Source: Bilabrum cf. latius (lineage: Eukaryota). From it: a stretch of 64,000 bases of DNA. Position 1 is the stretch's first letter, and every line of letters begins with the position of its first letter. A program made the translations under genes and the position numbers. Shown here one piece after another: positions 802-64,000 of the stretch. Below the pieces are notes generated by a model. The model was not told where the DNA came from. It saw only the letters and a program-made list of their open reading frames with translations, and searched no databases. The stretch is taken from NCBI GenBank assembly GCA_965178125.1, contig OZ237736.1:1550001-1614000 (forward strand). The letters run 5' to 3'.

Positions 802-2528
802 TCAACTCGACCTCACCACAAAGACAAGCGTCTGGTCTTCTGGTAGCCCGCTGGCTTGCACCGTCCGTCTTCCCGCAGGGACGGGGATGCTGACAACCTG
901 CCCTGTGTAGGCCAGCACATCCATCGTGGCGGGATCCCCGGCGACGGTAGCGTCCTCCAGCTGCAGCTCGAAGCTGCTCCCCGAGCAATTGCTCCAGTGT
1001 GGGCGGTTCTGCCATGCCGTCACCTGCAGCACCTCGTCCCGCCCCTACTCCCGGCCCCGCTTGAGCCCCCGGACATACCGCAGCAGCCCGCTCGCTCGCT
1101 GAAGGCCCTCGTCAGCCCGCCCCACGGCATCTGCGAACCACGGCGGCAGGCTGCCCCCGAGCGCGCCCTTGCCCGTCACGTCGGCATCTCCCGCGGGGCG
1201 AAAGTTCCAGGCCGCGCCCCTTCCCTGCACCGGCATCCAGGTGACTGTTCCCTGGCCAGGGTGCGGCTGGGAGGCCCCTGGCAGGAGAGCCATGGGGCCC
1301 ACCAGCTGCACGAAGGAGGCGAACACAGCGGCCCTCTCCGTGGGGTGGTAGGGGCTCAGACTGAGGGCCATCCCGTAGTTGCTGTCCTGGGAGGGGGCGT
1401 GGAACAGGTTCCACGGGAACACGACGGTTGCAACCGGGAGCAGGGGCGCTCCCCCGGGGCTACCGCTCGCCGCGGGGGGTACCACCGTGCCAGCGTTGTC
1501 CACCAGTCCCGTGAGGATGCCCCTCGCCGCGACGTGTTCCCCCGTCACCTCGGCCTTGTAGTTCAATTCCGTGGCCACGAAAGTGACCGGCCCCGCCCCC
1601 TGCGCCCTGGTCACGTTGGCGTAGTTCAGCACCCCTTGGAAGTCCCCGTTGGCGGCCCAGTTGTACGTGCCGTTGACAGGGGCGTACTTGGGCCCGTTGT
1701 AAGTGTGCAGGTCCACGGCATCCAGGGTCCCGTTGCTCCAGAGAGGGGCCAGTGCGGGGCCGATCCCCTTGAGGGAATGCCCCGCCCCCATGTTGGGGGT
1801 CTTGTACCCTCCCCCCAGCACCTTGAGCGAGGGGTCCACCCCCTTGACCCCGTCGCTGAGGCCCTGCAGTGCGGCGCGGTACGGCCCCGGCCCGATGGCC
1901 CCGCCCTCATCGAAGCCAGTGCCGTCCGGCTCGTTGGCCCACGTGTAGTGGCGCACCCCGAAGGTGGACCGAGCAGAGTGGTTCTTGGCCCAGAGGCCGC
2001 CCGGGCGGGCGTACTCTGCAAACTGCCGCCCTATCTCCTTGAACTGGGAGTACGACCCCAGGCCATCCGTGGCGTAGTAGCTCGAATAGTACTCGAGAAG
2101 GAGGTACGGGCTGTCGAACCCAGAATCGTGCGCTGCCTGCAGCACGCCGTCCAGTGTCTCGGGTTTCGGATCGCTCCAGTTCACCTTGTTGCCGGCAATT
2201 CCTTGCACGTAGTCGGAAAGATACAGGTTGACGCGGAACGAATTGGCTCCTATCGCCCGGAGGACCGCCATCTGCTGCAAGGTCTCGTTGGATACCTGGC
2301 CGTTGGTCCCAACGTTGCCTCCGCCGTACCTACAAAATCATAGCAAACTCCATGAGAACGCTAGATTATGGGCTAATGGACTTTCGCAATGTGCTGGCAC
2401 GGTTTGTCGCTAGCTTACAGAATTGGATCGGCTCCGCCCGCAATCTGCATGGCCAAAGATGCGGTGTGTAGCCCAAGCCCGCAAGCTAGCAGTCCGATAA
2501 AGAGACCAAAACTACTTAGAAGGGCCAT
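802..2528 (-). CDS. Secreted clan GH-A (GH5/GH39-like) glycoside hydrolase; one intron (~2329-2418), one in-frame TAG at 1045
   Basis: Signal peptide [25 protein letters not shown]...TTTGTAG intron. WANEPD, VDLHTY and VATELN resemble the acid/base and nucleophile motifs. ORFs 1045-2280 and 802-1032 share a frame across TAG; ends at TGA. Confidence 0.65.
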
Positions 2529-2640
2529 TTTACCAACCCTGTGAAGAGGCTGACACAAAAGCAGCAGGTCTTAAGTCAAATTCCGGATTTGTGAGCAAAT
2601 GACGCGCAGCACCCACGAGAACGGTTTTCAAAGGCAGCAA

Positions 2641-62900: not shown

Positions 62901-64000
62901 CTCCGCACCCGCGGCGGAGTGGCCACTGCATCGAAGGTACGCCTGCGGCCAATAAACGCACCCCTTGCACCGGGAGGTCCGTCGGCATCGGAGGCTGACG
63001 TCGGCTCCGTCTCGGATCCGCCAGTGGCGAGCCCCCTGCCCATGTCCCTGTCGACCGGCAGGTCAACGGATCCGAATCGGCTCTTGCGGTTGCCCCTTGC
63101 GCCCCGGGTGGAGGGCATTCCGCCCATGCTGCCGCCGCCTATGCCGTGCGATGTGCTCGACCACCCGCGGCGACCGGCCGGGCCGCCCCACGGCCGCTGT
63201 CTGCTCTGCGGCTGTGGAGTCCTGGACTCGCCGGGCCCGTGCCTGACCGCACGACCTGCCCCCGCGCTGATAGACAGACCCCGCTGGTGTGGCGAGCCTG
63301 CGAAACCTGCGGGAGACGCCGCCAGCGGTGAGCTAAAAGCATCCGCGGGAGACGTCATGGCCGCGGCGGCACCCATGAGTCCGAAGGAGAGGCCCGGCAT
63401 GGGGCCACCCACGGGTGTGCTGGCCGCATGAATCCTGGGAGACGGCACTTTGGAAGGCACGCGGCGGTGCCTCCGACGACCAGACAGCGTGCTGCTGTGT
63501 CCTGCCACGCTCCCGGACCGATGACTCCTTGTGCCTGCGGGCGAACCCAACTCCATGGGGCCACCGCCCCCGCCCCCGCCATCGCCATCTCTGCCACCAG
63601 TGCCTCTGCCCCCACTCGCGGCGGTAGCAGCGTCTCGGGTGCCGACGATCACAGACCGGCTGCGGCTGCGGGTCGCAGATTGTGACGAGTGCGATGCTAC
63701 TCCTGTCGTCGAGGCCGCAGCACCTCCAGCGGCCCGCCTCCCGCCCTCCGCGAGCATCCTGCCCTGCGAGGACCTGCGGCGGCTGCCAGGGGCCCTGTGC
63801 GTAGGGGTGGCCTGAGAGCTGGCAGCCATGTGCGTGTTGGTGATGCTGCGGTTCGAGTCCCCGGATTCTAGGGCCCCCCGGCTGTCCTTGCGACCAAACC
63901 CCGCGGTGGAGGCGCCACCGGTCGGTGTGCGCTGCCCCCTGGTCAGCTGGATCTCGGAAGCCGGAGGCAGGGCAGAGTCGCACCCTGTGACCCGTGGCAC
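50915..64000 (-). CDS. Giant voltage-gated K+ channel (Kv-like, 6TM), >4360 aa, 5' end outside the window; 11 in-frame TAGs
   Basis: Ten ORF fragments share one frame and are separated only by TAG; TGA at 50917-50915. S1 FFGMVVMLAILLSVVSFCIES, S2 VEAVCVVLFTFEY, S3 VVDLLAILPFYVEL, S4 LRVLRLGRVLRIFKLGR and pore WYVVISATTAGYGDVVP. Confidence 0.88.

Follow-up and report, generated by a model that had tools for sequence, protein, structure and literature searches.

Nuclear genetic codes in which UAG has been separated from UAA are very rare, and have been described from Iotanema spirale, an uncultured rhizarian, Scotinosphaera and a few ciliates (PMC5304391, PMC11687900). A code in which UAG alone encodes Gln is known from Iotanema spirale, from Protocruzia tuzeti and from two phyllopharyngean ciliate lineages (PMC5304391, PMC11687900). 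We analyzed a window of 64,000 nt from Bilabrum cf. latius (contig OZ237736.1, positions 1,550,001-1,614,000, forward strand; all coordinates below are window positions), in which most genes are interrupted by in-frame TAG codons. With a probability of roughly 0.87, this organism and a clade of its relatives use a nuclear code in which UAG encodes Gln while UGA and UAA are stops, the pattern of NCBI table 15. The window would then resemble Iotanema spirale (Fornicata), which is likewise a non-ciliate with UAG for Gln and UAA as a stop (PMC5304391), as well as Protocruzia tuzeti and the two phyllopharyngean lineages, in which UAG alone changed to Gln with repeated origins (PMC11687900).

The window has a G+C content of 60-70% and contains no N. 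Read with the standard code, its longest stop-to-stop frames measure 923, 894 and 890 codons. Taking TAG as a sense codon extends the longest frames to 4362, 2314, 1729, 1602 and 1254 codons. Taking TAA as sense brings no gain, with the longest frame staying at 923 codons, and taking TGA as sense gives a longest frame of only ~1187 codons, a gain that is expected, since no other stop trinucleotide is as frequent when DNA is GC-rich. The frame lengths under the four codes therefore identify TAG alone as the codon that breaks the genes.

Genes were identified by Pfam and PDB searches with TAG masked as X. The set used for counting comprises 17 coding frames of 16 genes (eIF5 contributes two exons) with 18,212 codons; a GMP reductase/IMPDH-like gene at 4331-6100 on the plus strand, which runs over several exons and frames, and small unassigned frames are outside the TAG counts. 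Introns are few. A first-pass annotation of this DNA had put the number of in-frame TAGs at 75-80, in 14 of 18 genes on both strands. The number was close and genes with TAG do lie on both strands, although the recount gives 74 TAGs (72 of them downstream of the first in-frame ATG) in 13 of the 16 genes, with none in those for the leucine-rich-repeat (LRR) protein LRR2, the splicing factor Isy1 and the phosphatase PP2C. The same annotation had stated that no gene needs TAG as its stop, and this holds throughout: 13 of the 16 frames end in TGA, three in TAA and none in TAG.

As a control we used the two off-frames of the same strands and stretches, with rates scaled to 18,212 codons, which predict 100.6 TAG, 30.5 TAA and 242 TGA. 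With 74 in-frame occurrences against 100.6 expected, TAG thus comes close to the frequency that it would have without constraint. The absence of in-frame TAA and TGA is a consequence of how the frames were delimited, and the evidence proper lies in the frame lengths: TAA and TGA together occur at ~1.5% per codon in the off-frames, so that the chance of a gap of 2313 codons is ~e^-35. Counted as Gln codons, the 74 TAGs would stand beside 676 CAG and 131 CAA and make up ~8% of the total. We regard it as nearly certain that UAG is a sense codon.

The genes whose TAGs bear on the identity of the encoded residue are the following.

41272 to 46458, plus strand: kinesin-14 frame of 1728 codons with stop TGA and TAG at 41482, 43570 and 45415
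2641 to 4170, minus strand: eIF5 (Pfam eIF-5_eIF-2B and W2), with exon 1 from 4170 to ~3950, an intron and exon 2 at 3780-2644; stop TGA, TAG at 3979-3981 and 3730-3732
10711 to 12720, plus strand: copine frame (Pfam Copine, 1.1e-65) with stop TGA and TAG at 10870, 12376 and 12577
17464 to 24405, plus strand: frame of 2313 codons without a Pfam family, encoding the protein P0002; stop TGA, 21 TAG
38173 to 40842, minus strand: bacterial-type RadA/Sms with stop TGA and TAG at 40684, 40492 (zinc ribbon), 40330 and 40210

TAGs are found inside Pfam domains, namely the kinesin motor, the eIF5 N-terminal domain and the RadA zinc ribbon. Three TAGs of the window had been singled out at first pass as in-frame codons at positions where the families typically have Gln, and both statements are borne out (43570-43572, plus strand; 3979-3981, minus strand; 10870-10872, plus strand). 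The kinesin domain (Pfam Kinesin, 1.2e-100, residues 461-840) spans TAG 43570-43572, which corresponds to residue 767 in the motor domain and is matched by Q in all four alignments listed of 144 PDB matches (KIFC3, two Kar3 and KCBP). TAG 3979 falls on the Q of the ELGAQ motif of eIF5 in 5/5 alignments listed, which involve near-identical chains and amount to about one observation. The second TAG of eIF5 (3730) occupies a position that we presume to be variable. For copine we selected 16 diverse sequences among the 120 hits listed; 15 of the 16 cover the C2-domain column of TAG 10870; they have Q in ten cases, E in two, and H, S and M in one each. Beyond close relatives, these copine homologues come from animals and plants and are ~35% identical.

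Proteins of closer relatives, which come from assembled public runs or metagenomes, also point to Gln. At 75-87% identity, they have Q at four of the five TAG sites covered. P0004, 87% identical to P0002, has Q at both of its sites (22135 and 22552); P0005 (82%) has Q at 20971; and P0006, a copine with 75% identity, has Q at 10870. At the DNA level, a run from a relative with ~10% differences (X11) carries CAG instead of TAG at 22552, through a T-to-C difference; X11 and P0004 may belong to the same lineage. The word-index searches with P0002 were dominated by low-complexity words and yielded one fragment each. P0004 and P0005 are short database fragments that align to 22102-22773 and 20707-21000, respectively. 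P0004 stops exactly before a Gln codon of the window (residue 1771 of P0002), as would be expected if the relative had a TAG there and gene calling with the standard code had ended the protein at it.

A more distant relative was found by scanning metagenome contigs with P0002, which returned a single locus, L001 (10,694 nt, 60.6% G+C); scans of genome contigs and of viral contigs returned no relative of P0002. The orthologous frame in L001 (3425-10321, 2298 codons, stop TGA) is open only with TAG as sense, and contains 18 TAG, 0 TAA and 0 TGA, where the off-frames predict 18, 6.5 and 42. The orthologous protein is mostly disordered; aligned in full with P0002 it is 32% identical, and the best segment reaches 38%. 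In conserved stretches, TAG 17989 of the window pairs with CAG in L001, and the window codons CAG CAG at 18055-18060 pair with TAG TAG. Of five TAG columns with at least nine identities among 14 flanking positions, three have Q, one E and one S. The alignment shows a code common to both organisms; the residue is not fixed by the alignment alone.

Two neighbouring genes in L001 also contain TAG. A sulfatase-like gene at 21-1421 on the minus strand has one in frame, and a gene at 1909-3249 on the plus strand, which encodes a FabI enoyl-ACP reductase of bacterial type that is extended at its N-terminus, has four. The four sites in FabI fall in variable columns and are uninformative on the residue.

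Not every site conforms to Gln, and the observations collected in this paragraph, together with those given below on UAA, on frame ends and on tRNA and eRF1 genes, weigh against the code that we propose. The assignment of the residue depends on few sites. At 20995, P0005 has P, and the Arabidopsis copine BONZAI1 has E at the site of TAG 10870. In the RadA zinc-ribbon column of TAG 40492, for which 72 of the 150 representatives listed were aligned, K (41) and R (10) predominate over Q (7) among 67 residues, so that the column is non-discriminating. Across all 30 TAG columns of the alignment between P0002 and L001 the partner residues are G (6), S (5), Q (3), D (3) and others, and the likelihood calculated from this alignment ranks Q first, by just 0.1 log units over S.

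Such sites would suit a code that has UAG as sense but assigns it to another residue, such as Glu, Lys, Ser or Leu: K or R fill 51 of the 67 RadA positions, BONZAI1 offers Glu, Ser is as likely as Gln across the distant L001 alignment, and codes with UAG for Leu, Ser or Glu are known (PMC11687900). Yet in the relatives at 75-87% identity four of five sites are Q and none is K, E, S or L; the sites in kinesin and eIF5, both strongly conserved, show Q in all alignments listed; and TAG and CAG are exchanged in DNA at four codons. We therefore consider another residue quite improbable. Given that UAG is sense, Gln is very probable, and the earlier assignment of UAG to Gln is upheld by the close-relative sites and by the exchanges with CAG.

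Whether the TAGs are genuine and persist in mRNA was assessed with contigs from four public runs, which were mapped onto positions 18000-37999, a region with 27 in-frame TAGs. The contig pieces listed cover at least 16 of these; the six TAGs of the trypsin-like gene are among those outside the listed pieces. Genes in this region, besides that of P0002, include the following.

27615 to 30212, minus strand: gene with two upstream introns (30047-30216 and 30377-30763) and TAG at 28974-28976
34050 to 36980, plus strand: GH92 glycoside hydrolase (Pfam GH92, 1.6e-97) with stop TGA and TAG at 34209-34211 in the signal-peptide region
37110 to 38074, plus strand: splicing factor Isy1 (Pfam Isy1, 2.5e-67) with a 93-nt GT..AG intron at 37209-37301, stop TGA and no TAG

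Run X4 is of DNA type: its contigs reach 212 kb, and those listed show no spliced joints. Over 18000-24263 it has no letter different from the window, and it covers at least 15 TAGs, all identical. Contigs from run X5 cover at least 15 of the 27 TAGs among the pieces listed, again with 0 differences, and within the P0002 frame the X4 DNA and the X5 contigs are each identical over 15 TAGs. For GH92, an X5 contig (34153-37068) has 0 other letters and covers TAG 34209. Two further TAGs upstream in GH92, at 34092 and 34143, are probably non-coding.

Spliced joints with GT..AG borders are present in the X5 and X7 contigs at 30046>30217, 30376>30764 and 37208>37302, the last of which was found in both runs and matches the Isy1 intron that had been predicted beforehand from the frames. 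Since introns have been removed, these contigs contain mRNA-derived sequence. Thirteen of the TAGs covered by X5 lie on contigs without a splice mark, and the RNA origin is carried by the spliced contigs only. TAG 28974-28976 is unchanged on a contig from which both introns have been spliced out, one such contig each in X5 and X7, which come from two studies. Editing or splicing of TAGs out of the RNA had been named at first pass as an outcome that would overturn the reassignment; the spliced contigs show the contrary for TAG 28974. The three GT..AG introns, which span 93-387 nt, are the only well-anchored joints in the 20 kb, and none of them takes out a TAG.

The possibility that the TAGs are untranslated, as assembly errors, pseudogenes, edited positions or parts of unrecognised introns, finds no support among the pieces listed, which cover at least 16 of the 27 TAGs. 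Independent runs of three studies show 0 differences at the covered TAGs, TAG 28974 is retained on spliced mRNA, none of the three introns removes a TAG, 13 of the 16 genes contain TAG and conserved, expressed ones are among them, and the distant relative L001 has the same pattern. Assembly error, editing and hidden introns are very unlikely, and we give this explanation as a whole a negligible chance. In-frame TAG occurs at a near-neutral frequency, in conserved domains, in DNA and in spliced RNA, and it is interchangeable with CAG between relatives.

The gene at 27615-30212 has the deepest contig coverage within the mapped region. The X4, X5 and X7 contigs carry three coded organism labels and stem from three studies, yet they are letter-for-letter identical to the window. 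This identity means either one organism under several labels or a shared associate, prey or contaminant. Some runs that contain parts of the window are labelled as algae or as protist metagenome.

UGA is still a stop and the chief terminator (13 of 16 frames). The role of UAA is read from its absence inside genes and from the three frames that end in it.

49488 to 50669, minus strand: GH130-like gene with stop TAA and TAG at 50364 and 50658
6547 to 10308, plus strand: leucine-rich-repeat frame of 1253 codons with stop TAA, TGA three codons on, and five TAG
12849 to 17654, minus strand: frame of 1601 codons without a Pfam family, with stop TAA, 12 TAG and a 17-residue tandem repeat

In the 13 frames that end in TGA (~15,000 codons) there is no internal TAA. 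If TAA were used for Gln in the proportion in which CAA and CAG are used (131:676), the 74 TAGs would predict ~14 sense TAAs; none was observed. UAA as a further Gln codon, the pattern of NCBI table 6, is not seen: neither the 18,212 codons counted in the window nor the 2298 codons of L001 include an in-frame TAA. The TAA of the GH130-like gene lies five codons past the last conserved strand, and the next 100 codons contain no in-frame stop. The other two TAA-ended frames have a TGA only three and nine codons downstream, which makes them weak proof of termination.

These two frames leave room for a code in which UAA and UAG both encode Gln and TAA is merely too rare in 64 kb of GC-rich DNA to be met with. 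UAA and UAG almost always change jointly (PMC5304391, PMC11687900), and TAA is the rarest stop trinucleotide in the window, with 32-49 occurrences per frame. However, in-frame TAA is absent where 30.5 (from the off-frames) or ~14 (from CAA:CAG) would be expected, and in L001 it is absent where 6.5 would be expected; the GH130-like TAA is at the usual C-terminus of its family, with no further stop for 100 codons; and freeing TAA extends no frame. We see only a slight chance that both codons have been reassigned. UAA is taken to remain a stop, on statistical grounds and in a small sample of 64 kb, in agreement with the uncoupling of UAG from UAA that had been proposed at first pass.

Two tandem repeats lie in or next to these TAA-ended frames. 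That in the 12849-17654 frame (14846-15392) has a 51-nt period and ~10 copies with 94-98% matches, and encodes units of 17 residues (…STDRSMPAGHQSSSIAA…) on the minus strand. A repeat of 36-nt and 120-nt units at 49191-49486 adjoins the TAA of the GH130-like gene and leaves the frame free of stops for more than 100 codons; it is probably 3' untranslated.

The frame ends also bear on whether UAG could still act as a stop in places. In an ambiguous code, UAG would be read as Gln internally and as a stop in some genes according to its position, as in Condylostoma or Blastocrithidia, where context-dependent codes are known for other codons. TAGs at 12858, 24391 and 27068 lie 3-19 codons ahead of the TGA or TAA that ends their frames, and are possible real stops. 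On the other hand, all 16 frames can do without TAG as a stop. TAG 24316 is followed by a C-terminal block that is conserved in L001, TAG 45415 is followed by 347 codons without TGA or TAA, and the G/P/Y-rich repeats of GYPG type in copine run on past TAG 12376. A code of this kind is unlikely here, and Gln at UAGs inside genes with termination at UGA and UAA is the reading that we retain.

The remaining frames of the counted set are listed below.

50915 to 64000, minus strand: K+ channel-domain frame of 4361 codons, running beyond the window end, with stop TGA and 11 TAG
24899 to 27127, plus strand: trypsin-like frame of 742 codons with stop TGA and six TAG
802 to 2337, minus strand: frame of 511 codons without a Pfam family, with stop TGA and one TAG at 1045
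31308 to 33977, plus strand: LRR2, a leucine-rich-repeat protein that served as a TAG-free comparison gene, with stop TGA and an X5 contig at 31151-34045
46721 to 47647, minus strand: PP2C phosphatase with stop TGA and no TAG

The channel frame has at least 4361 codons, with its 5' end outside the window. It matches Pfam Ion_trans at residues 2181-2368 (2.6e-37), and outside this domain it is of low complexity and rich in Ser, Gly and Arg. RadA/Sms was identified by Pfam and by a PDB match to RadA (4.4e-72). It consists of a zinc ribbon, an ATPase and a Lon-like domain with long insertions rich in Gly, Ser and Glu, and is of bacterial type yet lies on a eukaryotic contig. Eukaryotic RadA is for the most part an organellar protein of plants and algae. 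The bacterial-type gene may be a hint at the lineage. An atlas comparison pointed to Platyhelminthes and Chordata for Isy1, and to Streptophyta, Haptophyta and Chordata for the kinesin (scores of 0.88), which are weak leads.

The reassignment could be explained by a tRNA-Gln with anticodon CUA, which would pair with UAG and not with UAA, and which could arise from tRNA-Gln(CUG) via one anticodon change. Its partner would be an eRF1 whose N-terminal domain had lost affinity for UAG. CUA is the sole anticodon that reads UAG yet ignores UAA, and the eRF1 changes named as candidate causes are T32G for Iotanema and, for the rhizarian exLh, L69A (PMC5304391). No tRNA gene or Rfam family was found in the 64-kb window, no tRNA gene was detected in L001, and eRF1 is not among the window genes; the mechanism is one that we thus infer.

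Most likely, the window represents a new lineage with a known kind of code. We put at even odds an independent and undescribed origin of a code with only UAG reassigned to Gln, in a clade of GC-rich, intron-poor eukaryotes that are not ciliates. The first-pass annotation had raised such an origin for a flagellate, possibly stramenopile-like. If that origin holds, the clade would be old enough for orthologues to have diverged to ~32-38% identity while TAG is sense in both, and TGA would be its chief stop. In the literature searched we found no report of UAG for Gln in a GC-rich non-ciliate; most subscription journals were outside the search, and this is not proof. One further paper deals with plastid codes only (PMC6733595).

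If the proposed code is true, a reassignment of UAG in a genome that favours codons ending in G would not fit codon capture under AT pressure, and an ambiguous-decoding route would be favoured. The case tests base composition as a driver of code change, and adds a data point on the co-evolution of eRF1 and tRNA-Gln from a GC-rich genome with TGA as the chief stop. The code would be common to a clade that includes several sequenced organisms as well as a distant relative from environmental DNA. Gene calls with the standard code would fragment 13 of the 16 genes here, and each database protein found for the relatives is a fragment, between 92 and 458 residues long. Code 15 is therefore needed whenever genomes of this clade are annotated or its proteomes are compiled.

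Among the described systems, Iotanema is predicted to have a tRNA-Gln(CUA) and an altered eRF1 (PMC5304391), the mechanism that we also propose here. In Iotanema UAA is the dominant stop (PMC5304391), whereas TGA ends 13 of the 16 frames of the window. The window is also set apart from Iotanema by its 60-70% G+C and its bacterial-type RadA, and the relative L001 by FabI. From the ciliates it differs in carrying many genes on one stretch of 64 kb, with GT..AG introns that measure 93-387 nt, which does not look ciliate-like. The phyllopharyngean genomes have 27.4-53.6% G+C and UAA as their commonest stop (PMC11687900), in contrast to 60-70% G+C and TGA in the window. Amoeboaphelidium protococcarum, an aphelid parasite of algae, resembles the window in having changed a stop to Gln outside the ciliates, but there UAA also encodes Gln (PMC5304391, PMC6299283), and its genome has 40.5% G+C (PMC10608142). 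Considered as a source in view of the algal and protist run labels, it was rejected because of this G+C content, which is far below that of the window. The rhizarian exLh (UAG for Leu) and Scotinosphaera (UAG for Ser) share with the window the uncoupling of UAG from UAA (PMC11687900). Their UAG encodes another amino acid, whereas in the window the relatives and the conserved sites point to Gln.

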